Positions 43,868 to 58,631 of a stretch of 64,000 nt of DNA are shown here, one piece after another. This DNA is from Candidatus Daviesbacteria bacterium. GTDB lineage: Bacteria > Patescibacteriota > Microgenomatia > Daviesbacterales > UBA10151. The notes beneath the pieces are model-generated. The model was not told the origin of the DNA. It searched no databases and saw only the letters and a list, made by a program, of their open reading frames with translations. The translations under genes and the position numbers were made by a program. The stretch spans positions 1,824 to 65,823 of the forward strand of contig JACOXD010000003.1 in NCBI GenBank assembly GCA_016176465.1, in the 5' to 3' direction. Each line of letters starts with the position of its first letter. Position 1 is the first letter of the stretch.

Positions 43868-44566
43868 TTAGGGTGAACTTATGGGGCTAGCAGTATTGTT
43901 AAGGTAATGAGCACAAAGCCCAGGTGTTCTGGCAATAATAAACACTGCATTAGCTAACTTTGCTTCCCAGCCAAAGCTACAAAGTACAACAGCAATAGCT
44001 GCATCTATATTAGCAGGCAAAGTTATCCCTTTTTGAGCTTTAAGCTCTGCTTCTAAATCTTTAGCTACTTTAATAAATTCCCCACCAAGTCCTGCTTCCT
44101 CAAGCTTTTTAAAAATTAGCTGGGTCCTAGGATCAGCCTCTTTGTAAACTCTATGCCCAAACCCAGGCATCCTTTTCCCCTCTTTTAAATATTCTTCTAC
44201 CAAATTTCCTATTTCGTATTTCGTATTTCGTATTTTATATAGAATCTCCATACAAGGTTCTATTGCACCCCCATGAGACTCATTTATCTGTAAAATCCCA
44301 GCTGCAATAGCCTCAGATAAAGTTTTTCCATCTTTTGCAGCATTAACTGTTGCTACTCCAGATGGAGAGTTTGGACCATGATCTATAGAAAGATTTAAAA
44401 TAAGCTCAAATATTTTTTCTTCCTGCTTAGAAGGAGTTTTTTCTGATAAAAGTTCAAAAATTAGTGAGGCAAAGCTTCTCTGCTGAGAGATCTCCAAATG
44501 ATTTTCTTCCCCAAACAATGCGGGTTTGCTTTCATCATTATCTTGATGTGTTATTGTCCTAGCCAT
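43868..44566 (-). CDS. truncated citrate-synthase-fold protein (citryl-CoA lyase-like module)
   Basis: Citrate synthase signature MPGFGHRVYK and GPNSPSGVA. At 232 aa it is about half a citrate synthase, like the ATP-citrate-lyase CCL module. Confidence 0.6.
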   Translation of the reverse strand: MARTITHQDNDESKPALFGEENHLEISQQRSFASLIFELLSEKTPSKQEEKIFELILNLSIDHGPNSPSGVATVNAAKDGKTLSEAIAAGILQINESHGGAIEPCMEILYKIRNTKYEIGNLVEEYLKEGKRMPGFGHRVYKEADPRTQLIFKKLEEAGLGGEFIKVAKDLEAELKAQKGITLPANIDAAIAVVLCSFGWEAKLANAVFIIARTPGLCAHYLNNTASPISSP

Positions 44567-45460
44567 TTATAATGCTCCTTTCACTAAACTTGCTATTTGA
44601 TCAAAATCATCAGCTACTAAAACTCCTGCATCTTTTAAAATTTGCCTTTTTATATCTGGTTTCCCTCTATCCCCTTCAATTATTGCTCCTGCGTGTCCAA
44701 ATTGTACATCAGATGGCAAGCGTTCTGTAAATTCCCCACCAATATATGCAACCACAGGCTTTTTAATTTTACCCTGTTTTTTTAAGATACTTACTCTCTC
44801 CTCATAAGTTCCACCTAATTCACCAAAAATAACAGAGGCTTTTGTTTTAGGATCATCTTCAAGGGCCAACAAAAAGTCCCCAAAGTCAGTGCCAATTATC
44901 CTATCTCCACCAATCCCAACAGCCCAAGATATACCTAAACCATGGTTTTTTAAATGAATCCCAATTTCAGATGTCATCCCTCCTGATTTAGAAATAATAG
45001 CTACTTCTCCATCTATAAATGCTCTCTCAGGAGTTGCACCTCCAATTGAGCCTATCTTTATTTTTCTACTTGGACAAATCATCCCAACTGAGCTTGGGCC
45101 AACTAAGCTAATTCCATTTTTTTTAGCTAAAGCATAGATATAAGATTCATCCTTAGTAGGGACTTTTTCTGTAACAATGAGTATAAATTTTACTCCAGCC
45201 TCTATTGCCTCTACTGCTGCACCTTTTACAAAAAGAGGTGGTACATAAAGGACTGTTCCATCAATTTCCCCCACAACTTCTTTGGCTTCTCCAACTGAAT
45301 TAAAAACTGGTAAACCTAAGATTTCTTGTCCACCTTTTCTAGGAGTTACCCCAGCCATAACTTTTGTTCCATAATCAAGCATGGTTGGTAAGGCAGTAGA
45401 CCCTTCAGAACCTGTAATACCTTGACCAATAATTTTTGCTCCCTCTGGTAAAAGTAACAT
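44567..45460 (-). CDS. succinyl-CoA synthetase alpha-like subunit (CoA-binding, phospho-His)
   Basis: GITGSEGS (CoA-binding Gly loop) and the phosphohistidine loop QFGHAGAII. Confidence 0.8.
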   Translation of the reverse strand: MLLLPEGAKIIGQGITGSEGSTALPTMLDYGTKVMAGVTPRKGGQEILGLPVFNSVGEAKEVVGEIDGTVLYVPPLFVKGAAVEAIEAGVKFILIVTEKVPTKDESYIYALAKKNGISLVGPSSVGMICPSRKIKIGSIGGATPERAFIDGEVAIISKSGGMTSEIGIHLKNHGLGISWAVGIGGDRIIGTDFGDFLLALEDDPKTKASVIFGELGGTYEERVSILKKQGKIKKPVVAYIGGEFTERLPSDVQFGHAGAIIEGDRGKPDIKRQILKDAGVLVADDFDQIASLVKGAL

Positions 45461-46095
45461 TATTTAACAACCTCCTGTGCTTGTATACTGTAAAGTTGAG
45501 AAGGCTTTTTTTCTGGATATTTTTCTAAGTACTTCTTAACTATATTGAAACCTAAAGTATAACCAGTCCATTTAGGAATGTTTCTATCCCCCATTCCAAA
45601 AAACCATTCGTTATGATCGTATTCTTTTGTAAATTCCTTTTTAGCTAACTCACTAAACTTTTGTAGTTGTTTTTCAGTTAATGCTAAGTCCCATTTTTCT
45701 GGTTCGCCATCTAAATATTCCATTTCAAAATGGTCTGCCAAACCTTCGCTTACAAGAGCTTCAAGTAAAGTCTTACCATACCCAGGATTTTGCCAGCGAA
45801 TTGCATGATGAAGTTCATGTGCAAGAATTCTAGGCAAATTTTTAGCAATAGAGTTATTAATATTAGGGAATTTGGGATCTAAATAAAGATTAATAAGATA
45901 AGTGTTTTGAGCATATCCTCCAATTCCTAGATGTTCTATCGCTCCCAATGGATTGTCTTCAACAATAACGTCTAAATCAGGCAAAGGAAGTAATTGTACA
46001 ACTTCACTTTTAACTTTTTTTATAATTTCTTCAATTTTTTTTGAGAATGGAATTAATCTACCGCTAGCTTTTAATATATAGATTCCTCCGTTCAT
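45460..46095 (-). CDS. HExxH-motif protein (DUF2268-like putative Zn hydrolase)
   Basis: The only motif is LAHELHHAIRW. It sits between the SucC-like and SucD-like genes with a start/stop overlap. Confidence 0.4.
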   Translation of the reverse strand: MNGGIYILKASGRLIPFSKKIEEIIKKVKSEVVQLLPLPDLDVIVEDNPLGAIEHLGIGGYAQNTYLINLYLDPKFPNINNSIAKNLPRILAHELHHAIRWQNPGYGKTLLEALVSEGLADHFEMEYLDGEPEKWDLALTEKQLQKFSELAKKEFTKEYDHNEWFFGMGDRNIPKWTGYTLGFNIVKKYLEKYPEKKPSQLYSIQAQEVVK

Positions 46096-47306
46096 AAATT
46101 TTTCCTTTGGGCATATTCTTTAGCTAAATCAACTATTACTTTTGCACTCTCAGCTATAGATGTTTCTTGACCATAAAGGTGCAAATCAAAATCTTTTACT
46201 TTTTTTAACATCTCAAATGCTTCCTCGTCCCTTGGTCCTCCTCTTCTTATCACAATAGGATAATCAGGTTTTGAAGTAATTTTTCTTAATGCGTCTAAAA
46301 ATCCAGATAAAGTTTCATAGATATCTGTAAAGTTAGCTACTCCTCCAACTACCCATAATCCATTTAAATTAGGCTTAGAAAGTACAATTTGAGTTAATTT
46401 TTCCACCTTCTCTTTGGGAGGATTGCCAGAGTACTCTGTATAGTTTGCAGGCTTTCCACCTATTTTAAATAAAGCATCCATTGCAGTTAAGGATGCCCCA
46501 CCACCTGAAGCTAAAACTGCTATATCACCATCAAAATCAAAATAAGTTGAACCTGCTACTCCTCTATAATCTTCTTCATCTATTTTTTTAGCTTCAATTT
46601 CTCTATCTGATGGAGTATAACCTGGGACTGCTCGAGGTGGATACTGTTGCCACTCCTCATGTCTTTTGATAGCACTATCATCTAATTTTATCTTTGCATC
46701 TAGTGCTACCCAACCATTTTTTGTTTTAACCAAAGGATTAATCTCTAAAAGTAAACAATCTTGTTCAAAAAAAAGGTTAATCAGCTTTTCTAAGATGTCA
46801 TTCTGAACCCTTCGCTTCGCTCGAGGGTAAACTCCGTGAAGAATCTCTAAGTTGGATCCTTCGCTTTCGCTCAGGATGACAGATTGAGTAATTGGATCTA
46901 CCGGAAAACTTTTTACTCCTCTTTCTTCTATTCCTATCCCTCCTTTATTGGAAATATTTAACACAGGTCCCCTTGTATCAGTATCATAAGAAAGAGAAAC
47001 ATAGTATTCCTTTGCTATATCTACTTTTTCTTCTACCAACACCTTCTCAACTTTTTCTTTATTGATTACTTTACTAAAAAGATCCTTTAAACTAGACGCT
47101 ACACCCTCTATGCTATCCTCTACTATTATTCCTCCTGCATCTGCTCTTTTTCCTGATAGCACTTGGGCTTTTAAAACTACTTCTCCTGTCATTCTGAGGG
47201 CGAAGCCTGAAGAATCTAAATCAGAGGATTCAATAAGTTGGAAGTTGGGAATATTTATCCCAGCATCTTTAAGTAGTTTTTTCCCCTCATATTCATAAAG
47301 AATCAT
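46092..47306 (-). CDS. succinyl-CoA synthetase beta / ACL-beta-like ATP-grasp subunit with two in-frame palindromic inserts
   Basis: MILYEYEGKKLL (ATP-grasp N-terminus), LLEINPL, GGGASL...PANYTEYSGNP. Confidence 0.75.
   Translation of the reverse strand: MILYEYEGKKLLKDAGINIPNFQLIESSDLDSSGFALRMTGEVVLKAQVLSGKRADAGGIIVEDSIEGVASSLKDLFSKVINKEKVEKVLVEEKVDIAKEYYVSLSYDTDTRGPVLNISNKGGIGIEERGVKSFPVDPITQSVILSESEGSNLEILHGVYPRAKRRVQNDILEKLINLFFEQDCLLLEINPLVKTKNGWVALDAKIKLDDSAIKRHEEWQQYPPRAVPGYTPSDREIEAKKIDEEDYRGVAGSTYFDFDGDIAVLASGGGASLTAMDALFKIGGKPANYTEYSGNPPKEKVEKLTQIVLSKPNLNGLWVVGGVANFTDIYETLSGFLDALRKITSKPDYPIVIRRGGPRDEEAFEMLKKVKDFDLHLYGQETSIAESAKVIVDLAKEYAQRKNL
46797..46880. repeat. composite palindromic repeat element (28 codons) in the sucC-like gene
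   Basis: gtcattctgaacccttcgcttcgctcgagggtaaactccgtgaagaatctctaagttggatccttcgctttcgctcaggatgac. Terminal inverted repeats gtcattctga / tcaggatgac. It encodes SVILSESEGSNLEILHGVYPRAKRRVQN. Confidence 0.65.
47188..47216. repeat. short palindromic repeat unit in the sucC-like gene
   Basis: gtcattctgagggcgaagcctgaagaatc is the same unit as the tatD copy gtcattctgagtgaaacgaagaatc. It encodes (L)DSSGFALRMT. Confidence 0.55.
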
Positions 47307-47351
47307 GGGTATATATTAGGGTAATAGGTTATAGGTAGCAAGTAATAGATG

Positions 47352-47423
47352 TGGCAGCGACAGGGATCGGACCTGTGACCTAAGCTTTATGAGGGCTCCG
47401 CTCTACCACTGAGCTACGCTGCC
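47352..47423 (-). tRNA. tRNA-Met (anticodon CAU), elongator-type (could instead be Ile2/lysidine)
   Basis: Hand-folded cloverleaf. Acceptor GGCAGCG/CGCUGCC is perfect. D-arm GCUC-AGUGGUA-GAGC. Anticodon loop CUCAUAA. T-loop UCCGAUC is atypical. Confidence 0.65.
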
Positions 47424-47463: not shown

Positions 47464-47790
47464 TTAAGAAGGCTTAACTGCTTGTTCTTTTTGATATTCT
47501 TGTAAAAACCCTTCTGCAAAATTATCAAAAAATTTTAATGCTTCCTGATCTGGATCTTTATTTGTTCTTAATTTATATCTTTTTCTTATCTCCTCATTAG
47601 CCTGCCTTTGATCAATGCATTTTTCAATTGCTTTAAAATCCTCATCAGTAAATGAAAGCATAGCTTCAGAGTAAAGTTTAGAAAAAGAAGTGCTGGTTAA
47701 ATCTTGGGTAAACTCTACAATTTGTGAATCACTGTAACCTTTTTCTTTTAAAACAGCTATTACTTGCTGATACTTAGTTGATTGATCCAT
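47464..47790 (-). CDS. hypothetical protein
   Basis: 108-aa acidic, helical ORF immediately downstream of the 648-aa gene. Confidence 0.4.
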   Translation of the reverse strand: MDQSTKYQQVIAVLKEKGYSDSQIVEFTQDLTSTSFSKLYSEAMLSFTDEDFKAIEKCIDQRQANEEIRKRYKLRTNKDPDQEALKFFDNFAEGFLQEYQKEQAVKPS

Positions 47791-47792
47791 AA

Positions 47793-49739
47793 TTACTTTA
47801 CTCTCAAAGCTGCTTCTTTTGCTTTTAGATAGGCTTCCCAGACTGCATTGACTTTACCTGGATGTACTAACTTGATTTGGTCATTTACCATAATATAATG
47901 ATTCGCTTCTATTAATTTTTTCATTGCTGCGTGAGCCACTACTGGATCAGAGCTTTGTGATTGCTCCACCAACTGATCCAAGTTGTTAATATCTACTGGA
48001 AAATGCGCTCCCTCTGGTAAATGCCCTGCCTCTGCCATCGCTCCCCAATTGTCAATGAAAGTATCTTTATTGGCAAGGATATGTACAGCAAAAGTTTTAG
48101 CATCCTGCGGCCCCCAAGTTATATTATGCCCATGATCTATCAAGATTTGTCCCATGGTATTCCCTTGATGAACTTCTACTATATTGCCCATTTCTGGATG
48201 AGCATCGAAATCTGTAATTTCATTTATCTTGTTCAATATCAAATGCTGTTGGTATAAGTAATCCCTTAAAGCCTCCTTCGCAGTGTCCTGAAGGTGTTGG
48301 GAATAGAATGAGTCTGGAGATTTTAACTTATTTTCTAGGTACTCCTTACCTAAACTTTTTATTTCTTCAAAATTATCAAGATCGGGATTAGATGTATCCT
48401 CAGCTGCCTGTATAAGGTTTGCTCCAGCACTAGCTCTTAACTGCCCATAAGTATCCTGCCAGATTTGAGAGTAAGCTTCATTAGAGATTTGATCTGGAAC
48501 CATTCCTTTGGCTCTAATAGTTTCATCAACTATTTTATTAACTGTCTGAAAATTAGCCCTAGCTAACTCATCTTTTGCCTGAGCAAATTCAGGACTTTTA
48601 ATCATTTCTTTAACTGCTTCTGTTTCCGATGGAGTAAGAGCATCTTTATCTGGGTCAATAAGAGCTCCTGAGGTACCCACATTCTCATCTACTGGAGCAC
48701 CTTGGCCTACTACTTCATGAGGTTCGCTTATACCACTTCCTAACCTGCCTAAACTTTCCCTAACGCTAATTTGAGTTTCAGGAGCAGCGGGCACGGGTTC
48801 TGGAACATTAGGAAATTTAGGTGTTTCAGCCAATTCCCTTATAGGAGTAGTCACTGGAGTTGGTGTACCTTCAATAGTTGGTGTGGTTGGAGGAGTAGCA
48901 CTTTCAGTAGGAACTGGAGTTTCTACAGTAGTCGGAGTACTTTCAGGAGTTGGTGTATTCTCCAAAGCTTCTGCAGTAACAGTATCTGTAGGTTCTGGTG
49001 TGAGAGTAGCTGGCACTGTAGCAGTTGATGTAGCTTCAGGGGAAGGAGTGGCCTCTGGGGTAGGGGTTGCATCAGCAACAGTCTCAGAACTAGACCCTAT
49101 TGAACGAATGCTTCTTAATAAATTTCCTCCACTGTCCATTACATTTTGAAGTACATTACCAGGAGAAGGGAGGGAAACTTTTGGTAGTCTTTCTGCTGCG
49201 ACAGCCAAATTAATTCTAGAGATATACTCACTAATAGGAACACTTAAACCCATCTCAGCACTAATCTCTGGAGCAACAGCTGCAAAAACTCCCTCAATTG
49301 AAACTAAAGCAGCTCCTGCTGAAACTCCCAAAGCAAATTCTTTTAGATGGTGTGCAACTTTAGGATGGCTACTCTCAAGTACGCTTATCTTACTTAACAC
49401 TCCTCTTTCGCTTGCAAATACTGCTCCACTTAAAGCAAGCCTAAGACCAGTTCTTGCCAAAGGACTACCATTAAGCAAAACGCCACTCCCTACTCCAATG
49501 CCATATCCCACTCCCCAGGAATACCTACCTTCAGTAAATACTTTACGGGGAGCATCTAGAGGATTTGCATTTTGGGCCCATTTACCTAAACCTCTAGCAA
49601 AAGCTTTGCCAATACCGGCTGCAGAAATTCCTCTTCTTTCTGCTATAGGATTTTGGGCGGCATTTTCTGCTTCTATTTGGGCTGCAAAATTACCCCAGTC
49701 ATCTGCTCCTGGATTTGGCGCTTCTGCTGTTCTTGCCAT
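47793..49739 (-). CDS. large hypothetical protein with a Thr/Pro-rich low-complexity linker
   Basis: 648 aa. Gly-rich hydrophobic N-terminal region (GVGYGIGVGSGVLL...), a central (TPxPE)n linker, and a C-terminal domain with an HQGNTMGQILIDHGHNITWG motif of unknown function. Confidence 0.5.
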   Translation of the reverse strand: MARTAEAPNPGADDWGNFAAQIEAENAAQNPIAERRGISAAGIGKAFARGLGKWAQNANPLDAPRKVFTEGRYSWGVGYGIGVGSGVLLNGSPLARTGLRLALSGAVFASERGVLSKISVLESSHPKVAHHLKEFALGVSAGAALVSIEGVFAAVAPEISAEMGLSVPISEYISRINLAVAAERLPKVSLPSPGNVLQNVMDSGGNLLRSIRSIGSSSETVADATPTPEATPSPEATSTATVPATLTPEPTDTVTAEALENTPTPESTPTTVETPVPTESATPPTTPTIEGTPTPVTTPIRELAETPKFPNVPEPVPAAPETQISVRESLGRLGSGISEPHEVVGQGAPVDENVGTSGALIDPDKDALTPSETEAVKEMIKSPEFAQAKDELARANFQTVNKIVDETIRAKGMVPDQISNEAYSQIWQDTYGQLRASAGANLIQAAEDTSNPDLDNFEEIKSLGKEYLENKLKSPDSFYSQHLQDTAKEALRDYLYQQHLILNKINEITDFDAHPEMGNIVEVHQGNTMGQILIDHGHNITWGPQDAKTFAVHILANKDTFIDNWGAMAEAGHLPEGAHFPVDINNLDQLVEQSQSSDPVVAHAAMKKLIEANHYIMVNDQIKLVHPGKVNAVWEAYLKAKEAALRVK

Positions 49740-49789
49740 AATTTGCTTCCTATCTATAAATTACTATATACTAATGATACAGTATTCAT

Positions 49790-52700
49790 ATGGCTATGGC
49801 AAATGAAACCCAACATGAAGGAGAAAGTATTCAACCTCCTGTGTTTACAGAGGTGATGAGTAGTATCGGTGAAAAAATTAGTGCAGGGATTACTGATCAA
49901 AATGCTGCTTCTTTATTAAAAGATGTGTTAAATTTAGATCAAACTTTTCTACCTAATGGCAATAAAGCTACAACCAATGAAAAAGTACTAGCAAGAATAA
50001 GAGAGCCTCTATCTGGAAACCCAAGTGTTTTAAAAGAATTGGGAAAAAGGGGCTCAACAGCTATCTCTCTTGATCAATTGAGGCAAGTTGTTCGTCTTGC
50101 TGAAATTTTAGATATTAAAAATTTAGATGAATATCCCGGATTACTTGCAGCAATTAAAAGAGATATTGCTAGGGAGGAGTCTGCTCAAACTTCTCCTTCC
50201 CAAGCACATAAAGCAGCTATTCCCATTACCCCAGCTGAACCAGTTGTTACTTCTGCTTCTGAATTAAAACTAGAAGAATATTTATTACAAGAACTATTTA
50301 GGGAAGCTGCTCAACAAATAACAGAAAATGGTAGAGCAGAAATTCCTGCAAGTACTAAAATGCTTGGATGGTTAGTAGATGGAGCCTTAACAAGAGCTCT
50401 TGAAGAAAGAAGTATCCAACTTAGAGAACACTATGTTGATGCTTTTATTTTAGATCCTAAAACCCCTGGATTAATAAGATTTCAAACTAATATAGAGATG
50501 CAGAAACCTAATAAAATCATCAATTTAGATTTCGATGCCGTGATATCAGGAGCAAACTTAAGCGCAATATATTTCGTAAGTGATAAGGTAAGACAAGGAG
50601 TGCTTAGTAGAATAGCTAAACCATTTTTTAAAGACAGGTTTACAGAAGAACAGGAAATAAAGGAGATGCTTAGAACTAGGAAAGAAGCAAGAGCAAGTGG
50701 CGAAACTCCTCCCCTTCATAAAATTGTAGAATACTATCTTGCTTATCAATTCCAAAATTTGGGAGTAAAATTTGCTGGTTTGCAACTTAGGTGGGAAGGC
50801 CGACAATTAAAACTAATTTTTCAAGGCTCTGATTTATCTTCTACTATAGATGTCCCTGCTGATAGAGGTTCAACTAGGTTGGGGATCCCAGAAGATGGTT
50901 CTAGGGTTGTATTAGCTGATGCTACATCCCCTGAAGCAATATCTTCTCCTGCAGAAGAGGTTGAAGTGATTCCAGAAAATGTTAGAAAAATTATTGAGGA
51001 TTTAAGGAGTGCATACAAGGCTTATAATGATGCCTACTCCACTCAACCTGGAACGCAAACAGAGGAAGCCCTAGCAGATGTTCGTACCAAAGAAAGAGAG
51101 CTTAGTGAGGCATTAGGTTTAACAGGTGCTGAAAGTTATAAAGAGGTTGAGCTACTAAAAAAACTAGAATTGGAAGCTAAATATAATGATCTAGCATTAA
51201 CAGACACGAATAGAACATCTACATACCCTAATCCTCACTTAATCCTTGAGCTTTTTTCAGGTGCCCCCAATTACCTACGGCAAGCTGCTGCAGATTACTT
51301 CCAACATGCTAAATTGGCCACTCCTGCGGAGCACAGTGCCCAACTTGAGGAAGATTTAATGAAAATAGAAAAACTAACTAAACAGGCTGCAGTTGATATG
51401 GCCAAAAGAGCTGGTAGAGTGATAGGCGATATACTTTCATGGCGTATGTCAGTAGGACCATCATTTGATTATGACCAGGCCTTACGTAGATCAGACACTA
51501 TTCCCGAGCAGATAATAGCACTTTTTAAAGCTAAAAATAAAGCGGAATATAATAAGCTTAAACCAGCAGTAGATTTACAACAAGCAGTGAATGAGTTTAT
51601 TGATAGCTTAGCCAATCGAGCGCTACTTCGATTAGAATCCACCAATTTTCACTACCGGGATTTAATTGATCCATTTGAGAGTCATCAAGGACACGTTATT
51701 AAACTATTTGGTTGGATTAGAGATTCATATGGAGACCTAAAAACATATCCTCCCGAGTCCGATAATTATAATAATATTAAAAAAGGTATTAGAGCAGATG
51801 AGGAACAAATTTTAAATATCCTAGGTGTTACAATGCACCCTGAATATAGACAGCTTCTGTATGCTCATATAGGAGTTTTGCAGAAAATCTCTGAAGATAC
51901 TCCTCAAGAAAAATCTAATAAAGAACTTAATGATAAGTATACAAAAGCCTTAGAAAATTATAAAAAACTTCTTTTATCTGATAGTCCAAATTTTAAGAAT
52001 GTAGCTAGAGCTTTAAAGGTTGCCAGTATGGCCAGGATGAGAATGGAAAACGAGATGATGGAACGGGCTTTAGCTGCTCCAACACTCCGAGATGAATATA
52101 ATAGTGCTGATGGCGCTCGAAGGGCAGTTTTAGAAGATGAGTTAAGTACTCTTCTAGGATTATCCCCTGAAGATAATGGAAGAAGAATACACGAATTATA
52201 TATGCAATATAAATCTACAATTTTTAAAACTTTTGATCTCTCAGCTGAAATACCAATCCCTCCTGATGATTTTACAGGAAGGTTATTTAAGAAAGACACC
52301 GGAACTACAGATGCCTTTTTCAGATATCAATACATCTCAAAGAATATACTAGCTTTGCAAGCACAAGGAATAGAAGTATCGGATGAAGAATTGGCAGAAT
52401 ATCAAAGGGTTTTAGAAGAGCTAATAAATCTTTTTTATTTTGAAGCTGATGTTTCAGGAAGGCCTATATACTACAAACAAGGTGGGGAGTGGGCTGGTCA
52501 AGATTTAGTTGCAGCTATTGAGGGAGGAGAAAGTGAAGAAATGATCAAAACACTCTACATTAGGAGAAACCAGAGTATGATTAGGTTTTATCAGGAATTA
52601 TTAGATCAATCTACCTCCACAAAAATTAATGAGTACTTAAAAAATTTAGCACATGATGCAGGATTAGAATTTAGAACCTCAAGTATCCCTGGCCAACCAG

Positions 52701-53308
52701 CAAAATTAGTGGAGCTCCCTCCTTTGCCACAGCCCATTGTTGTGCCCCCACAAGCTCCAGCAATCGAACCTGCTCCAGCTGAGAGGAGATTGGATATTGA
52801 TATTGTTAATGTCATCAGCCAACTTGGAAAGCTTTATAAGGGTAAATCTGCAAAAACCTTGGAAGAAAGAGAGCAGCTGGAAGATCAAATTGCCAAATCC
52901 TTTGGGTTTGATGCAGACCGCGGATATCGCTCTTTGGTTGAGACCCTCAAATATCTCACGGACTTAATATCTTCTCGGGGATTAAAATTACCTAAGGCAA
53001 ACGAAGATTTAGGAATAATGTTTGTTACAAATAGAGATGAATATCTATCTTTGTTAGAGCAGGTTATACAGAAATTAGAAAAAAATGAGGATATTAAGCA
53101 AGATATACCACTTTTAGTAGGGGCTTTGCGAGATAGAAATTATGCTTTCCTTGCCAGAGAAATCGACAGATATGAACGTGCACTTCCCCCTGAGGAAAGA
53201 GAAAGGCTAATCACTGCTGGCATACTTCCTACACCAGCCGCAGTTTTATCTGAAAGTGGCTTTGTTCTAGGTAATGCCCACTTAGGTGAGCCTCAATCAG
53301 GAGAATAA
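49790..53308 (+). CDS. very large hypothetical protein (1172 aa), predominantly helical
   Basis: Uninterrupted ORF with no TM segments, signal peptide or catalytic motifs. Divergent from the 648-aa gene. Confidence 0.5.
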   Translation: MAMANETQHEGESIQPPVFTEVMSSIGEKISAGITDQNAASLLKDVLNLDQTFLPNGNKATTNEKVLARIREPLSGNPSVLKELGKRGSTAISLDQLRQVVRLAEILDIKNLDEYPGLLAAIKRDIAREESAQTSPSQAHKAAIPITPAEPVVTSASELKLEEYLLQELFREAAQQITENGRAEIPASTKMLGWLVDGALTRALEERSIQLREHYVDAFILDPKTPGLIRFQTNIEMQKPNKIINLDFDAVISGANLSAIYFVSDKVRQGVLSRIAKPFFKDRFTEEQEIKEMLRTRKEARASGETPPLHKIVEYYLAYQFQNLGVKFAGLQLRWEGRQLKLIFQGSDLSSTIDVPADRGSTRLGIPEDGSRVVLADATSPEAISSPAEEVEVIPENVRKIIEDLRSAYKAYNDAYSTQPGTQTEEALADVRTKERELSEALGLTGAESYKEVELLKKLELEAKYNDLALTDTNRTSTYPNPHLILELFSGAPNYLRQAAADYFQHAKLATPAEHSAQLEEDLMKIEKLTKQAAVDMAKRAGRVIGDILSWRMSVGPSFDYDQALRRSDTIPEQIIALFKAKNKAEYNKLKPAVDLQQAVNEFIDSLANRALLRLESTNFHYRDLIDPFESHQGHVIKLFGWIRDSYGDLKTYPPESDNYNNIKKGIRADEEQILNILGVTMHPEYRQLLYAHIGVLQKISEDTPQEKSNKELNDKYTKALENYKKLLLSDSPNFKNVARALKVASMARMRMENEMMERALAAPTLRDEYNSADGARRAVLEDELSTLLGLSPEDNGRRIHELYMQYKSTIFKTFDLSAEIPIPPDDFTGRLFKKDTGTTDAFFRYQYISKNILALQAQGIEVSDEELAEYQRVLEELINLFYFEADVSGRPIYYKQGGEWAGQDLVAAIEGGESEEMIKTLYIRRNQSMIRFYQELLDQSTSTKINEYLKNLAHDAGLEFRTSSIPGQPAKLVELPPLPQPIVVPPQAPAIEPAPAERRLDIDIVNVISQLGKLYKGKSAKTLEEREQLEDQIAKSFGFDADRGYRSLVETLKYLTDLISSRGLKLPKANEDLGIMFVTNRDEYLSLLEQVIQKLEKNEDIKQDIPLLVGALRDRNYAFLAREIDRYERALPPEERERLITAGILPTPAAVLSESGFVLGNAHLGEPQSGE

Positions 53309-54063: not shown

Positions 54064-55005
54064 TTGACAATAATATCCTTTTTTAATATTATATGGGATA
54101 ATAGATACATAAGTATGGTTACTCTGCGTGATGCCCATCAACAATTTATTGGCCATTTAAAGGGGCGCTCACGTGCCTCAGCTACTATCTTAGCTTATGG
54201 TAAGGATATTGAGCAACTCGTCTCCTATTTAGTCGAACAAGGCAAACAAAATGCCCAGGATATTATCTTAGAGGATTTGAATGCCTTCATGGCTAAACTC
54301 TCTAAAGAAGGCTATACCGCTAAATCAATCTCCAGGAAGACTAATTCCACAAAAACTTTCTTTAAATTCTTAAAAACTTCTAATTTAATTGAAAATGATC
54401 CAGCCGGCGCACTTGAGCATCCAAAATTTGAGAATAAACCTCCCAGAATTTTATCTAAATTAGAATATCGAGCGCTAAGAGATGCAGCCAGAGGGGATCT
54501 TCGAATTTTTGCCATTATTGAGCTACTTTTGCAAACCGGGATTAGAATTGGAGAACTAGCCCAACTTAGTGTAGATGATTTGGATTTATCCTCTGATTCC
54601 CCCACTCTTCATGTCCCAGAAGGTGAAGGCAGCAATGCCAGAGATATTCCACTTAATAAACCAGCAGTTGAAGCAGTACAAAAGTATTTAGAGGTTAGGC
54701 CTAAAACTCCAAATGATAGAAGCTCATCTTTGACTAAAGCATTATTTGTAACCAAAACAGGAAGGCCCTTACTTGTTAGAAATATAAGAACTGCAATTGA
54801 TAGATACTTTAAGTTAGCAGGGATAAAAGATGCTAAGGTAAATGATTTAAGACATACTTGGGTAGCTCATCATTTAGAGGCTGGCACTTCTTTGACTTTA
54901 ATCTCCAAACTAGCTGGGCATAAAAGAGTTTCTACTACTGAAAGATACCTACAATTTATCCAAAACCGCTCAACTGATAGCAAAGTAAAGCTAGAAGAAC
55001 TCTGA
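54064..55005 (+). CDS. tyrosine-type site-specific recombinase/integrase
   Basis: C-terminal catalytic region LRHTWVAHHLEAGTSLTLISKLAGHKRVSTTERYLQ (R...HxxR...Y), plus an N-terminal SAM-like domain. Confidence 0.8.
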   Translation: MTIISFFNIIWDNRYISMVTLRDAHQQFIGHLKGRSRASATILAYGKDIEQLVSYLVEQGKQNAQDIILEDLNAFMAKLSKEGYTAKSISRKTNSTKTFFKFLKTSNLIENDPAGALEHPKFENKPPRILSKLEYRALRDAARGDLRIFAIIELLLQTGIRIGELAQLSVDDLDLSSDSPTLHVPEGEGSNARDIPLNKPAVEAVQKYLEVRPKTPNDRSSSLTKALFVTKTGRPLLVRNIRTAIDRYFKLAGIKDAKVNDLRHTWVAHHLEAGTSLTLISKLAGHKRVSTTERYLQFIQNRSTDSKVKLEEL

Positions 55006-55424: not shown

Positions 55425-55442
55425 TCAAAATAGAGCCTGTTG

Positions 55443-55516
55443 TGGGCGGACCTGGACTCGAACCAGGAACCGGAAATGTATAAGATTTCTGCGCTAACCA
55501 ATTGCGCCATCCGCCC
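55443..55516 (-). tRNA. tRNA-Ile (anticodon UAU)
   Basis: Clean cloverleaf. Acceptor GGGCGGA/UCCGCCC. D-arm GCGC-AAUUGGUUA-GCGC. Anticodon stem GAAAU/AUUUC with loop CUUAUAC (U33, anticodon UAU, A37). T-loop UUCGAGU. A73. Confidence 0.75.
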
Positions 55517-56267: not shown

Positions 56268-58631
56268 TTATAGTTTTGCCCTAGATGCTATCTCTGCCTC
56301 TACTGCTCTTTTATCCCTTCCATAAGTTAACCTGGATAACTCTTTAATTGCCCTTCCCACCTCTGGCCTCATCATGGCATACCAAGCTTTCATATCTTTT
56401 TGAACGTTTAGAGAAAAAGGTGGAATTGGCTCTCCATGAACTTGGGTTTTAACATATAAAGTGTGAGCAGCAATATTAACTAAATCTTGTTCATTAAAAA
56501 TGGGTGCAAATTCATGTTGTAAAAAGTTAGCATCTGTTACACCTACCCTATATGCCATGACAGTTCCAACATTTCCAAAGATAGCATTTTTAATATTTTC
56601 ATCAATTTGTCCAATAAACTGGTTAGCTACTATTAAATTTAATTTATACTTTCTGGCTTCAGATAAAATGGAAGCAAAAGTGTCAGTGGCAAAGTTTTGG
56701 AATTCATCTACATAAAGGTAAAAATCCCGCCTTTTGTTCTCAGGTGTATCAGCCCGAGACATTGCTGTTGCTAAAATCCGAGGAACTAAAACTAATCCCA
56801 AAAAGTTAGAGTTATCCTCACCCATTTTTCCCTTGGATAAATTAACTATCAAGATTTTGCCATCATCCATAATTTTTCGTAAATCAAATGAAGGTTTTGA
56901 TTGACCAATTATATTTCTAATCATCATATTGGTAACAAATTTTCCAAACTTGGAAACAAAATAATCAAGCGTTTCAGATTTGTGAAACTCAGTTGTTTGA
57001 GCTATTTGATCTGTCCAGTATCTTCTAACAATAGGATCTGCTACTAAGGGCAAAATCTCTCTAACAAATTGTGGATCAGTTAGTGCCCTAACAACCTCAA
57101 TTAAAGTCCCACCAGGCATGGACATAACTGTTAAAAGCGAGTTTCGAACAGCATGCTCTAAGCGGGGACCAATAATCCCGGTATGGTTTGGATCATAAAG
57201 TTTATAAAGCAAACCAATGATTGATTCCACCACAAAATGTTTTTGCTGTTCGCTTATATGCTCCAGCATATTCATTCCAAAAGGACGCTCAACATCAGAG
57301 GGGTCCCAATAAACTACATCTTTTGCCCGATTTGGTGGAATTAAATTCAAAAGTTCATCTGCAGCATCACCGTGTGGATCAATAAAAGCCAAACCTTTAT
57401 TAGCTAAAACATCTTGCAAAGCAAGTGATAATAAAAACTGTGATTTACCAACGCCGGTTCTTCCAATAATGTACATATGACGCTGGCGATCGGAATCGGA
57501 AATATAAACCGGACGCTGTGTCCCTCTAAAAATAGACTTACCAAGGTATAGTCCAAACATTGGGATTTTCTCTGAAGCTGGAGCATGCCTGGCCGGAAGC
57601 CAGTAGATAAAGGGGGTTTCAATAGATTTATTTGGAAAATGAAAAATGGAGGCAATTTCATCTGATGTTAAAACAGGCAATTTTGAAAACATTGGCTGAT
57701 ACCGATAGATAAAATCAACCATGAATCCTTTTTCCGATCTAATTTTTGCCCCACTAAACCCATTGTAAGCTCCTGAGAATTGCTCAAAGGCTGAGCGTAT
57801 GTTAGATAAATGAGCTTTAGCAGTATCTTTGCTACTTGAGGAAACTACAATCCTTACTGCTACATTAAACCCAGGCTTAGAGAGTTTATTTTCTACAGCT
57901 TCCAGCTGTTTTTGATCAGGAGGAGCTTTAGGTTTATCTCCTGTTCCAGGATCCTTTTCTTTTTTCAAAAATGATTTACCCGAATCTTTCCAGTTACCCT
58001 CTGCTGGAGAGATCATAATTTGAATAGCGGCTCCCTCACCTGGTTGCATTTTGGCTAAGGCGGAGGTAATCGCGGATAAAGGATCAGTTGGTAATTCCCT
58101 ATATGTTTTAATTGGGAAGTAGTTGGTATTTTTTAGTTTTAACATGGCATAAGCTACTTGACCTTCTTCTGAGAAAATATTGTATTCTTGAACTTCCTTT
58201 ACTTCAGCATCAGGATAAGCTCCATTAATTTGTTTTTCGACTAAATCCTGGTGTTTTTTATGGCAAGCGATGTAAAATTTAATTGATTCATTTAAAGCAA
58301 TAATTTCAAAAGATAAATGCGGTTGGGGTTTTAAAAATCCAAATATTCCCCCGCCTGTTTTTATAGAATAAAAAGTAGCGAGAAGTTGCTCTGCGGCATC
58401 AATTTTTATCTCATTTCCCCTGGGAACCGATATTTGAAGTAAAACAAACTCCAAGGAATCTCTTTCTCTATTTTTATACTTAATCCAACCAATAATTAAA
58501 GGAGATAAAAAATATAAAGCTAAAGCTACACCTGCAAAAATAAATAAGAAAATAAAAATAGATCCCAGTAAGGATAAGAAATCTATGTTAGTAGTGGTGG
58601 TTTGACTTGTAACTGCTCCGGTATATTCCAT
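56268..58631 (-). CDS. TraG/VirD4/TraD-like (AAA_10) membrane-associated ATPase, conjugation-coupling-protein-like
   Basis: Two N-terminal TM helices. Walker A IIGRTGVGKSQFL followed by IDPHGD. Walker B-like LYVDEFQNF. About 787 aa. Confidence 0.55.
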   Translation of the reverse strand: MEYTGAVTSQTTTTNIDFLSLLGSIFIFLFIFAGVALALYFLSPLIIGWIKYKNRERDSLEFVLLQISVPRGNEIKIDAAEQLLATFYSIKTGGGIFGFLKPQPHLSFEIIALNESIKFYIACHKKHQDLVEKQINGAYPDAEVKEVQEYNIFSEEGQVAYAMLKLKNTNYFPIKTYRELPTDPLSAITSALAKMQPGEGAAIQIMISPAEGNWKDSGKSFLKKEKDPGTGDKPKAPPDQKQLEAVENKLSKPGFNVAVRIVVSSSSKDTAKAHLSNIRSAFEQFSGAYNGFSGAKIRSEKGFMVDFIYRYQPMFSKLPVLTSDEIASIFHFPNKSIETPFIYWLPARHAPASEKIPMFGLYLGKSIFRGTQRPVYISDSDRQRHMYIIGRTGVGKSQFLLSLALQDVLANKGLAFIDPHGDAADELLNLIPPNRAKDVVYWDPSDVERPFGMNMLEHISEQQKHFVVESIIGLLYKLYDPNHTGIIGPRLEHAVRNSLLTVMSMPGGTLIEVVRALTDPQFVREILPLVADPIVRRYWTDQIAQTTEFHKSETLDYFVSKFGKFVTNMMIRNIIGQSKPSFDLRKIMDDGKILIVNLSKGKMGEDNSNFLGLVLVPRILATAMSRADTPENKRRDFYLYVDEFQNFATDTFASILSEARKYKLNLIVANQFIGQIDENIKNAIFGNVGTVMAYRVGVTDANFLQHEFAPIFNEQDLVNIAAHTLYVKTQVHGEPIPPFSLNVQKDMKAWYAMMRPEVGRAIKELSRLTYGRDKRAVEAEIASRAKL

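Follow-up and report, generated by a model that had tools for sequence, protein, structure and literature searches.

Organization of the locus

Do three neighbouring genes in the 64-kb stretch of DNA analysed here (hereafter the window), which comes from a Daviesbacteria bacterium, a member of the CPR with a tiny genome, encode an ordinary succinyl-CoA synthetase (SCS, SucCD) beside a decaying citrate synthase fragment, both left over from a lost TCA cycle, or do they encode a citryl-CoA synthetase (CCS, CcsA and CcsB) and a citryl-CoA lyase (CCL, Ccl), and what would such a module do for the cell? A preliminary description of this sequence had reported three such genes in a minus-strand string with an HExxH gene inserted among them, and four open reading frames were indeed found at the positions concerned. 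The features of the locus are as follows.

47351..47423, minus strand: tRNA-Met(CAT), detected by ARAGORN and Rfam, 44 nt ahead of ccsA and co-oriented with it
46092-47306, minus strand: ccsA-like gene, citryl-CoA synthetase large subunit, 404 aa, ATP-grasp and citrate-binding domain
46797..46880, minus strand: 84-nt palindromic repeat element, an in-frame insert in ccsA coding for residues 143-170, VILSESEGSNLEILHGVYPRAKRRVQND
45460-46095, minus strand: DUF2268/YjaZ-like HExxH gene, 211 aa, between ccsA and ccsB
44567-45460, minus strand: ccsB-like gene, citryl-CoA synthetase small subunit, 297 aa, CoA-binding and phospho-His
43868-44566, minus strand: ccl, citryl-CoA lyase, short "tail-less" form, 232 aa
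43822..43851, minus strand: promoter-like candidate site, TTGACC-18-TATAAT (11/12, with TG), from a consensus scan only

The four genes are translationally coupled, in turn by an ATGA overlap, a TAATG overlap and a TAA followed immediately by ATG; at this last junction, between ccsB and ccl, the stop codon separates the two products into individual polypeptides. A consensus scan detected no sigma-70-like site between the tRNA-Met(CAT) gene and ccsA, and it is possible that the tRNA gene is the upstream boundary of the operon or is co-transcribed with ccsA. The candidate promoter-like site lies between ccl and the next gene and may mark the downstream end of the operon. The repeat element inside ccsA, which has the terminal inverted repeats GTCATCCTGA/TCAGAATGAC, is an insertion compared with close homologues; its motif occurs in 7 copies in the window against 0.9 expected, every copy being located within coding sequence.

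The synthetase subunits

The large subunit matches the Pfam domains ATP-grasp_2 (PF08442, 3e-31) and Citrate_bind (PF16114, 3e-24), the latter being the citrate-binding domain of ATP-citrate lyase (ACL), and no match to the succinate-binding, SucC-type Ligase_CoA domain (PF00549) was obtained on it with Pfam. Its top PDB match is CcsA (6hxq_B, 4e-60), followed by AclB (2e-40) and SucC (8e-36), and for its substrate-binding C-terminal half all 14 CCS/ACL sequences rank above every SCS beta chain. The motifs GGGAS, EYSGNP, ANFT (residues 324-327, followed by D) and RRGGP (residues 354-358) align to ACLY G281-283, S308/G309, N346-T348 and R379, respectively, of which we take N346, T348 and R379 to be citrate-site residues, whereas E. 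coli SucC has GAGLAM, DVGGGA, IVRCD and RLEGNN. ANFT, RR and GGG are kept in 78 of 78 family members and the S308 equivalent in 74 of them, and E. coli SucC/SucD-type motifs were found in none of the 78. In ACLY, the residues of the catalytic centre and the citrate site include G281-283, S308, E599, S663-G665 and H760 (PMC11365397). The preliminary description had named the ACL citrate-binding residues as something to look for; the window protein has both these and the catalytic-centre residues, and they hardly vary among its 78 relatives.

The small subunit contains the Pfam domains CoA_binding and Succ_CoA_lig/Ligase_CoA. The His of its phospho-His loop, GHAGA (residues 255-259), is kept throughout the family (78/78), and the catalytic Glu, which lies in GELGG, is kept as GE.GG in 76 of the 78 members. 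Its K-S-G-G-M segment is the SGG of the CCS/ACL type, the family having SGG or SGS where SucD has SGT. The top PDB match is CcsB (6hxq_A, 7e-65), with SucD as a close second (1e-62).

This near tie speaks for an ordinary SucCD, as do the best named NCBIfam matches of the two subunits, which are the SucC and SucD models. The window proteins share with SucCD the superfamily, the two-subunit architecture and the phospho-His mechanism, and identity between the small subunit and SucD is about 42%. However, both subunits fall far below the model cut-offs (205 bits against 375 for SucC and 264 bits against 353 for SucD), ACL/CCS motifs take the place of the SucC succinate-site motifs in all 78 members, and the window module, unlike SucCD, is coupled to a lyase gene. 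The PDB ranking, the ranking of the C-terminal half and the motifs together support the original reading of the locus as an ACL-like CcsA/CcsB plus Ccl system and not a canonical SCS.

The citryl-CoA lyase

The product of the third gene had been taken for a truncated citrate synthase, a view that has to be corrected. Its AF2 model (pLDDT 92) presents a complete citryl-CoA-lyase fold with a Foldseek TM of 0.89 to the CCL of Hydrogenobacter thermophilus (6HXP), and in the Foldseek ranking 6HXP is followed by about 39 CCL-module chains of ACL and only then by citrate synthases, for which TM is 0.65-0.74. Sequence comparison with PDB gives the same order (CCL 6hxp_A, 3e-39; top citrate synthase, 1e-19), and the NCBI annotation of the 232-aa protein is citryl-CoA lyase. 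The protein shares with citrate synthase and 2-methylcitrate synthase (PF00285) the fold of the catalytic core and the His/His/Asp triad; unlike them, it lacks the N-terminal 140 or so residues of the Pfam model and a C-terminal arm, its match to Citrate_synt (1e-34) covering the C-terminal part of the domain, positions 140-347 of 357. The signature GFGHRVYK occupies residues 135-142. H98, H138 and D188 are equivalent to the catalytic triad of pig citrate synthase (H274, H320 and D375) and are kept in 73/73, 73/73 and 72/73 family members, respectively.

The chain terminates about 19 residues past R213 and has no Arg-bearing C-terminal arm. This form is found in 25 of the 73 family members and additionally at locus L013, and an arm with REKPxRR is present in 47 of the 73. 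H98, H138 and D188 are invariant in the short lineage. The arm aligns with the segment of E. coli GltA that holds R407 (pig R421), which we take to be a substrate-binding arginine that helps to bind the carboxylate of oxaloacetate or citrate; its presence in H. thermophilus Ccl is deduced from the length of that protein and from relatives that share 45-55% identity with it. The absence of the arm from the Ccl lineage of the window, in contrast to the other CCL, ACL and citrate synthase sequences compared, appears to be new.

Because this segment is missing, the activity or the substrate of the window Ccl could differ. The module might act on a related hydroxy-acid (e.g. malate, citramalate or 2-methylcitrate), forming its acyl-CoA and splitting this into acetyl- or propionyl-CoA and a smaller 2-oxo acid, especially in the tail-less lineage. 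Such a shift would also agree with the low identity of the window Ccl to H. thermophilus Ccl (merely 36%) and with its NCBIfam matches, the best of which are citryl-CoA lyase models (9e-46) that all stay below their cut-offs (156 bits against 212 for the top match, NF004869). We nevertheless regard it as unlikely, since the large subunit, at which the selection of substrate begins, shares its citrate residues with ACLY, and since the oxaloacetate-binding residues H63, R147 and R213 of Ccl are present in the window and invariant across the short lineage.

Comparison with H. thermophilus CCS/CCL and ACL

The closest known system is the CCS/CCL of H. thermophilus, which likewise consists of three separate polypeptides with the same domains and to which all three window proteins have their closest matches in sequence and structure. 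Both systems keep the His/His/Asp triad of the lyase as well as the phospho-His, the Glu and the citrate-site residues of the synthetase, although identities are only 40% for CcsA and 45% for CcsB besides the value for Ccl given above. The large subunit of H. thermophilus reads DIGG, ANNTR and RRNGP at the positions of the ACL-like EYSG, ANFTD and RRGGP in the window protein. Also unlike H. thermophilus, the window has the DUF2268 gene, the in-frame repeat element, an arm-less Ccl and no recognisable reductive TCA (rTCA) context.

ACL (AclB/AclA of Chlorobium limicola, PDB 6HXJ; eukaryotic ACLY) resembles the window module in its chemistry, its homologous modules, PF16114 and the ACLY citrate-site residues. 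In ACL, however, a single polypeptide (AclA) holds both the CcsB-like and the Ccl-like part, whereas these are separate genes in the window and in all 76 informative loci, and the scores of the window proteins to ACL are much lower than those to CCS/CCL. The position of pig H274 is His in the window Ccl, as in CCL and citrate synthase, and Phe in C. limicola AclA.

Distribution of the operon

The ccsA-ccsB-ccl operon occurs widely among CPR bacteria and DPANN archaea: all 76 of the 76 informative species loci, from Microgenomates, DPANN archaea and a small number of Parcubacteria, have the three genes in collinear order. Trees of the module proteins were small neighbour-joining trees with few and partly truncated references, and the ancestral ACL-like form suggested in the preliminary description is speculative. 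Complete or near-complete genomes with the operon measure no more than about 0.6-1.2 Mb, and the complete ones include OY970314.1, OZ246414.1 and OZ242164.1. An intact and syntenic trio in every informative locus is the opposite of what was expected from SucCD with a pseudogenised citrate synthase fragment, the outcome that the preliminary description had named as fatal to its reading; together with the C-terminal-half ranking, the motifs and the match of the 232-aa protein to a complete, confidently predicted CCL fold, this synteny effectively refutes the SucCD explanation, to which we assign next to no probability.

The preliminary description had considered citrate cleavage notable in an organism of this type, and here the surprise is smaller. 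Such genes in CPR and DPANN have already been noted (2022 preprint, 10.1101/2022.10.25.513756; PMC8091004), and the NCBI name of the lyase also came first. By itself, the presence of a CCS/CCL module in CPR/DPANN is not a discovery, being preceded by public annotation and one preprint.

The HExxH protein encoded between ccsA and ccsB belongs to DUF2268 (PF10026, "predicted Zn-dependent protease", 2e-34), and its HExxH motif, at residues 93-97, reads HELHH. The 80 related operon loci contain no DUF2268 homologue, and in relatives the gene stands in other, unrelated surroundings, at a distance of more than 20 kb from the operon. This distribution marks it as a passenger specific to the lineage and not a subunit of the module. 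The same operon junctions hold toxin-antitoxin, reverse-transcriptase, Fic and phosphate-transporter insertions in other loci.

Gene neighbourhood

In about 34 of the 80 loci, genes of GlmU-type, acetyl-CoA-dependent acetyltransferases lie in the gene string of the operon, in at least four architectures: full-length archaeal-type GlmU-like genes upstream of the operon; stand-alone bacterial-type LbH acetyltransferase domains adjoining ccsA; stand-alone archaeal-type LbH domains adjoining ccsA, one Nanoarchaeia locus among them; and full-length copies immediately downstream of ccl. GNAT acetyltransferases are located upstream of the operon in 7 loci, and NeuB and a GFO/IDH/MocA sugar oxidoreductase adjoin it in others. 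The linkage to GlmU is much weaker in the sub-lineage of the window, with a co-directional gene only at L030 and divergent ones at L023 and L028, and tblastn detected no GlmU-like gene near the operon in the window itself. The recurrent placement of GlmU-type acetyltransferases of two different origins beside the operon appears to be new. Because genes of both origins recur there, the arrangement points to a supply of acetyl-CoA from citrate.

A Pfam survey of the larger open reading frames of the window revealed no other TCA or rTCA enzymes, in agreement with what had been said of this DNA before. In the window and in the 6-kb flanks of the 80 loci, 2-oxoglutarate:ferredoxin oxidoreductase, fumarate reductase, aconitase and IDH were all absent. 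No citrate transporter was identified. TCA enzymes or other sources of acetyl-CoA may be encoded elsewhere in the genome.

These absences bear on the possibility that the module cleaves citrate within an rTCA cycle that fixes CO2, as it does in Aquificaceae. That role is favoured by the status of CCS/CCL as a marker for the rTCA cycle of the Hydrogenobacter type, and by the DPANN literature, where CCS/CCL genes are placed under the rTCA cycle (PMC8091004). Yet no other gene of the cycle accompanies the module in the window or the 80 neighbourhoods, the genomes that carry it are as small as given above, and a TCA cycle is, according to most reports, missing from the genomes of CPR and DPANN organisms (PMC8091004). 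We consider a role in carbon fixation highly improbable.

The neighbourhoods also bear on the direction of flux. Operating in reverse, Ccl would condense acetyl-CoA with oxaloacetate to citryl-CoA and CcsAB would make citrate, ATP and CoA from citryl-CoA, ADP and Pi, so that the module would serve a fermentative cell as an ATP-conserving "citrate synthase". The ACL/CCS reaction is close to reversible, that of ACL being near equilibrium, and the ACL of Desulfobacter postgatei was reported by Moller et al. in 1987 to run in the citrate-forming, ATP-yielding direction. CPR bacteria, moreover, are thought to depend on substrate-level phosphorylation, and the catalytic residues for either direction are all present. 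On the other hand, one C4 acid would be spent per ATP, neither aconitase, IDH nor citrate-export genes were seen in the window or the 80 neighbourhoods, and the recurrent coupling to GlmU-type and GNAT genes fits a producer and its consumer better than two competing consumers. Reverse operation thus appears improbable to us.

Proposed function

With somewhat better than even confidence, we propose that the locus is a Hydrogenobacter-type two-enzyme citrate-cleavage module that works alone, outside the rTCA cycle, and converts citrate to acetyl-CoA for acetylations, with DUF2268 as a passenger. Gene structure, family assignment, the conservation of catalytic and citrate residues and of the operon, and the neighbourhood statistics are observations; we infer the enzymatic activity, flux direction, citrate source and link to UDP-GlcNAc synthesis as follows. 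Citrate would be taken up from the surroundings or from a host. CcsA and CcsB would form citryl-CoA synthetase, in which ATP would phosphorylate the CcsB histidine; the phosphate would then move to citrate, giving citryl-phosphate, and attack by CoA would give citryl-CoA, the predicted net reaction being citrate + ATP + CoA -> citryl-CoA + ADP + Pi. The separate short Ccl, of citrate-synthase fold, would split citryl-CoA into acetyl-CoA and oxaloacetate via its His/His/Asp triad. The cell could use the acetyl-CoA to N-acetylate amino sugars and in further acetylation reactions, and oxaloacetate, the second product, for example to make aspartate. The DUF2268 gene would be co-transcribed with the module without being part of the enzyme. 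Because the operon is often linked to sugar acetyltransferases that use acetyl-CoA, the acetyl-CoA made from citrate probably serves the cell envelope and not carbon fixation. The role proposed here resembles that of cytosolic ACLY, which provides acetyl-CoA from imported citrate outside the TCA cycle.

A wider scheme is conceivable, although we put it forward tentatively and think it rather doubtful as a whole: in the episymbionts of CPR and DPANN, citrate from the host or the environment might be the carrier of acetyl groups, stand-alone CCS/CCL might be the main or only source of acetyl-CoA and be wired directly to GlmU-type acetyltransferases that make N-acetyl sugars for the cell envelope, oxaloacetate might go to aspartate, and the lineage of the window might do this with an undescribed, minimal, arm-less Ccl. 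If this were true, ultra-small episymbionts of both domains would use citrate as the eukaryotic cytosol does with ACLY.

Organization of the operon

Four ORFs were found on the minus strand of the window, exactly at the positions that a preliminary description, made by a model from the sequence alone, had assigned to them. Their coordinates and Pfam matches are as follows.

46092-47306, minus strand: ccsA-like gene (citryl-CoA synthetase large subunit); ATP-grasp_2 (3e-31) and PF16114, the ATP-citrate-lyase citrate-binding domain (3e-24)
45460-46095, minus strand: DUF2268 gene, "predicted Zn-dependent protease"; DUF2268 (2e-34); HELHH at residues 93-97
44567-45460, minus strand: ccsB-like gene (small subunit); CoA_binding and Succ_CoA_lig/Ligase_CoA
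43868-44566, minus strand: ccl gene (citryl-CoA lyase), 232 aa; citrate-synthase model, C-terminal two-thirds (1e-34); GFGHRVYK at residues 135-142

The four genes are translationally coupled: an ATGA overlap joins ccsA and the DUF2268 gene, a TAATG overlap joins the latter and ccsB, and the ATG of ccl directly follows the TAA of ccsB. A tRNA-Met gene lies 44 nt upstream of ccsA on the same strand. Since a strong promoter-like site (a consensus match only) follows ccl, the operon probably ends there. The HExxH protein noted in the preliminary description between the large- and small-subunit genes is indeed present and is the DUF2268 protein. By a Pfam survey, the remaining ORFs of at least 120 aa in the 64 kb were housekeeping, envelope and mobile-element genes, and no other enzyme of the TCA or reductive TCA (rTCA) cycle was detected in the window, in agreement with the preliminary description. 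The assignment of the contig to Candidatus Daviesbacteria (CPR, Microgenomates) is backed by three NCBI proteins that are 100% identical.

Identity of the synthetase subunits

The closest solved structures for all three enzyme proteins were those of the Hydrogenobacter thermophilus citryl-CoA synthetase (CCS) and citryl-CoA lyase (CCL). CcsA of the window matched 6hxq_B CcsA at 4e-60, AclB of ATP-citrate lyase (ACL) at 2e-40 and the best SucC at 8e-36, and CcsB matched 6hxq_A CcsB at 7e-65, with SucD near-equal at 1e-62. When the substrate-binding half of CcsA alone was used as the query, 14 of 14 CCS/ACL sequences outranked every beta chain of succinyl-CoA synthetase (SCS). In an alignment of this half, from which the human ACLY numbering was taken, G281-283, S308/G309, N346-F347-T348 and R379 of ACLY correspond to GGGAS, EYSGNP, ANFT and RRGGP in the window CcsA; the citrate-binding residues of ACL, which the preliminary description had proposed to look for, thus have equivalents here. 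In ACLY, N346, T348 and R379 reportedly contact citrate (Sun et al. 2010). At the positions of the four motifs E. coli SucC differs, having GAGLAM, DVGGGA, IVRCD and RLEGNN. The list of catalytic-centre residues was that of PMC11365397. In CcsB the phospho-His loop GHAGA and the catalytic Glu are present, together with the S-G-G motif of CcsB and ACLY, where SucD has S-G-T. Both subunits scored far under the NCBIfam cut-offs for SucC and SucD.

Distribution and conservation of the module

In a pattern-seeded scan that took one genome for each GTDB species, 170 loci were found to encode relatives of the large subunit, and 80 of these loci were kept. They belong to Microgenomates (Daviesbacteria, Woykebacteria, Woesebacteria, Curtissbacteria and others), to a few Parcubacteria and to DPANN archaea (Woesearchaeota, Nanoarchaeia), the large subunits of the archaeal loci showing 44-47% identity. 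In all 76 loci with enough sequence, ccsA, ccsB and ccl have the same order and strand, and the downstream genes for TrpRS, a tRNA-binding protein and FtsH are often conserved too. The key residues are essentially invariant across the 78/78/73 family members, and SucC- or SucD-type motifs were found in none of them. In neighbour-joining trees E. coli SucC, SucD and GltA fell outside the CPR/DPANN clade, and H. thermophilus CcsB and Ccl fell inside it. These trees are small, with few and partly truncated references; they are consistent with the CCS/CCL assignment but are not a resolved phylogeny, and for this reason we draw no conclusion from them on an "ancestral" status or on the branching order of CCS and ACL.

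The CPR-type operon also occurs in many MAG records whose titles read "uncultured Gammaproteobacteria" or "uncultured Pseudomonadales" (related loci L013-L020, L025, L026, L029, L030 and others). Several of these MAGs share the TrpRS/tRNA-bind/FtsH synteny and are 58-64% identical to the Daviesbacteria window; their titles are probably placeholders or taxonomically wrong.

The citryl-CoA lyase and its tail-less form

The window Ccl matched the solved CCL structure 6hxp_A at 3e-39 and the best citrate synthase at 1e-19, and its top NCBIfam matches were citryl-CoA lyase models. The protein keeps the equivalents of the citrate-synthase catalytic triad (H98, H138 and D188) as well as the oxaloacetate-binding residues H63, R147 and R213. 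An AlphaFold2 model built with 61 homologues (pLDDT 92.1, pTM 0.88) had H. thermophilus CCL as its top Foldseek match (TM 0.89 over the query), followed by about 39 ACL lyase-module chains and then by citrate and methylcitrate synthases (TM 0.65-0.74). We therefore concluded that the 232-aa protein is a complete citryl-CoA-lyase fold; the preliminary description had called it a truncated citrate-synthase-fold protein, and this part of it does not hold. With the fold complete, the residues kept and the operon order conserved, a pseudogene or a truncated citrate synthase was rejected. The larger alternative, an ordinary SucCD pair beside a pseudogene, would fit the near-equal SucD match of CcsB, but the lack of SucC and SucD motifs, the complete Ccl fold and the collinearity of the trio in 76 of 76 loci disfavour or refute it. 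The proposal of the preliminary description that the genes have the content of ACL or CCS/CCL rather than of a canonical SCS is thereby borne out, in the form of CCS/CCL.

Two lineages of Ccl were observed in the family. Proteins of the short one, which includes that of the window, have 220-232 aa; they are 50-65% identical to one another and about 36% to H. thermophilus Ccl. Those of the longer one, which come from Curtissbacteria, DPANN and a second Daviesbacteria group, have 245-263 aa and share 45-55% of their residues with H. thermophilus Ccl. The short proteins stop about 13-19 residues past the position of R213 (pig R401) and lack a C-terminal arm of about 25 residues with the consensus REKPvRRl...EYDGPxPRK, which aligns with the segment of E. 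coli GltA bearing R407 (pig R421). In citrate synthase this arginine is supplied by the partner subunit and binds substrate. The arm is present in 47 of 73 Ccl and absent from 25, plus the Ccl of locus L013, which was counted as tail-less since its apparent tail crosses a stretch of Ns. Nearly all of the best 120 database homologues have 218-240 aa, so that the tail-less form is a selected trait of the lineage and no product of faulty assembly. It is conceivable that the tail-less lyase acts on a shifted substrate, the missing arm being the one that aligns with the R407 segment; the fully conserved citrate site of the synthetase speaks against this. The tail-less Ccl represents a natural minimal form of the lyase module that underlies ACL and citrate synthase, and it therefore bears on substrate binding and oligomerisation of that fold.

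In the longer lineage, Asn replaces the oxaloacetate-binding His (window H63, pig citrate synthase H238) in 25 of 73 Ccl (L034-L061 and others). The same 25 have Lys for Arg after the catalytic His (GHK vs GHR), as do 10 further members, and these Asn/GHK variants are conserved in the second Daviesbacteria-labelled group.

The inserted DUF2268 gene

None of the 80 related operon loci contains a DUF2268 homologue, and in the closest relative (CcsA 71% identical) ccsB comes directly after ccsA. DUF2268 homologues, of at most 55% identity, are scattered over CPR, DPANN and other phyla; two relatives have them in unrelated surroundings, and in the genome that contains locus L018 the homologue is more than 20 kb from the CCS operon. 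Extra ORFs, mostly co-directional, occur at the ccsA-ccsB junction in 8 of 80 loci and at the ccsB-ccl junction in 21 of 76. They are mutually unrelated: a recurrent BrnT/CopG toxin-antitoxin pair, Fic (L078), a reverse transcriptase (L041), PHO4 with PhoU_div (L046) and several without a Pfam match. The two junctions are insertion hot spots. Because of this, and because no homologue occurs in the 80 loci, the best reading of the DUF2268 gene is a co-transcribed passenger. A functional subunit or a maturation protease of the module was considered and rejected, given its absence from all the loci and the unrelated contexts of its homologues.

Repeat element and other features of the window

A palindromic repeat element with the terminal inverted repeats GTCATYCTGAG.../...CTCAGAATGAC, which resembles the Rickettsia palindromic elements, forms in-frame insertions within coding regions. 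Its motif was observed 7 times against 0.9 expected, with every copy within coding sequence. Copies are located as follows.

46797-46880 and 47188-47215: inside ccsA
17769: TatD gene
34357, 35447 and 35500: PolA gene

The 84-nt copy at 46797-46880 adds 28 residues (VILSESEGSNLEILHGVYPRAKRRVQND) to CcsA compared with close homologues. In L012, L013, L015 and L017, inserts of other lengths with the same "VILSE...QND" signature occupy the same ATP-grasp loop.

Between the tRNA-Met gene and an integrase gene (54064-55005), the stretch 47464-53308 contains two very large ORFs without Pfam match, one of 648 aa on the minus strand (Thr/Pro/Glu-rich) and one of 1172 aa on the plus strand, in the highest-GC stretch of the window (0.41 vs about 0.35). 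In the relatives L004 and L008, ccsA is directly preceded by integrase-DivIC at this place, so the stretch may be a lineage-specific insertion with genes for surface or secreted proteins. A tRNA-Ile gene with anticodon TAT (UAU) at 55442-55516 adjoins an HTH gene, a DUF87/TraG-like ATPase gene (56268-58631) and a tyrosine recombinase gene. Such a tRNA is uncommon in bacteria, where AUA is usually decoded by a lysidine-modified CAU tRNA. An ATP-dependent DNA ligase of archaeal/eukaryotic type, with N, M and C domains, is encoded at 18447-20186 of this bacterial genome.

Linkage to acetyltransferases and proposed function

Clustering of the flanks of the 80 loci showed that the commonest neighbour besides the operon genes is a GlmU-type protein. 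About 22 loci have, upstream and on the same strand, the gene for a full-length bifunctional sugar-1-phosphate nucleotidylyltransferase/acetyltransferase of the archaeal type (TIGR03992, 253 bits). A stand-alone left-handed-beta-helix acetyltransferase domain adjoins ccsA in 8 loci, with gaps of -40 to +65 nt; four are of the bacterial GlmU type (233-246 bits on TIGR01173 for the two scanned, L061 and L068) and four of the archaeal type, one of these in a Nanoarchaeia locus. In 3 loci a full-length GlmU-type copy comes right after ccl and in 2 it is a divergent neighbour; GNAT acetyltransferases are found just upstream in 7 further loci. Elsewhere NeuB, a GFO/IDH/MocA sugar oxidoreductase, a sortase or an Asn-synthase-like gene adjoins the operon. 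In the sub-lineage of the window itself this linkage is weaker, and the 64 kb of the window contain no GlmU-like gene.

Clustering of these flanks brought up no citrate transporter; an NRAMP metal transporter was present at 15 of the 80 loci, with no obvious link to the operon. The Daviesbacteria MAG GCA_016183225.1, which carries CCS/CCL (L056), also has an HMGL-like/LeuA_dimer gene (L091, 1-1194) of the acetyl-CoA-consuming 2-isopropylmalate, citramalate or homocitrate synthase type.

The reaction chemistry of the module follows from its family membership: the CcsB histidine would be phosphorylated by ATP, the phosphate would be passed to CcsA-bound citrate, CoA would displace it to give citryl-CoA, and Ccl would split this into acetyl-CoA and oxaloacetate. 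Because the acetyltransferase linkage recurs in several independent arrangements and in both domains, the operon is most likely an acetyl-CoA producer, converting citrate to acetyl-CoA and oxaloacetate for N-acetyl-sugar and envelope synthesis, a role that would be analogous to that of the eukaryotic cytosolic ACLY. Run in reverse, the module could chemically serve as an ATP-conserving citrate synthase, but it would then require a source of oxaloacetate and a sink for citrate, neither of which was seen, and the acetyltransferase coupling fits it less well than it fits acetyl-CoA production. As far as the available sequence goes, the role does not appear to be in the reductive TCA cycle, and carbon fixation of this kind is disfavoured by the data.

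The presence of CCS/CCL genes in CPR and DPANN is already known and is not new. In NCBI the short protein of the window already bears the name citryl-CoA lyase, and some relatives are annotated as citryl-CoA synthetase large subunit by JGI and NCBI. CPR and DPANN sequences labelled SCS or citrate synthase group with CCS/CCL in a 2022 preprint (10.1101/2022.10.25.513756), and ACL/CCS/CCL genes were reported in a few DPANN MAGs, with carbon fixation left "unclear" (PMC8091004). Among open-access papers and preprints, we found none dedicated to CCS/CCL function in CPR or proposing a role of the module in CPR/DPANN, and no description of the tail-less lyase or the GlmU linkage.

CPR bacteria and DPANN archaea account for much of microbial diversity. 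Matches to ccsA, ccsB and ccl in metagenome surveys of these groups are unsafe as evidence of rTCA carbon fixation. The conservation of a putative citrate-cleaving operon outside any TCA cycle, and its repeated coupling to GlmU-type acetyltransferases, lead to the testable hypothesis that citrate is a scavenged acetyl donor for synthesis of the cell envelope, and the main interest of the locus lies in this possible provisioning of acetyl-CoA in reduced-genome symbionts.
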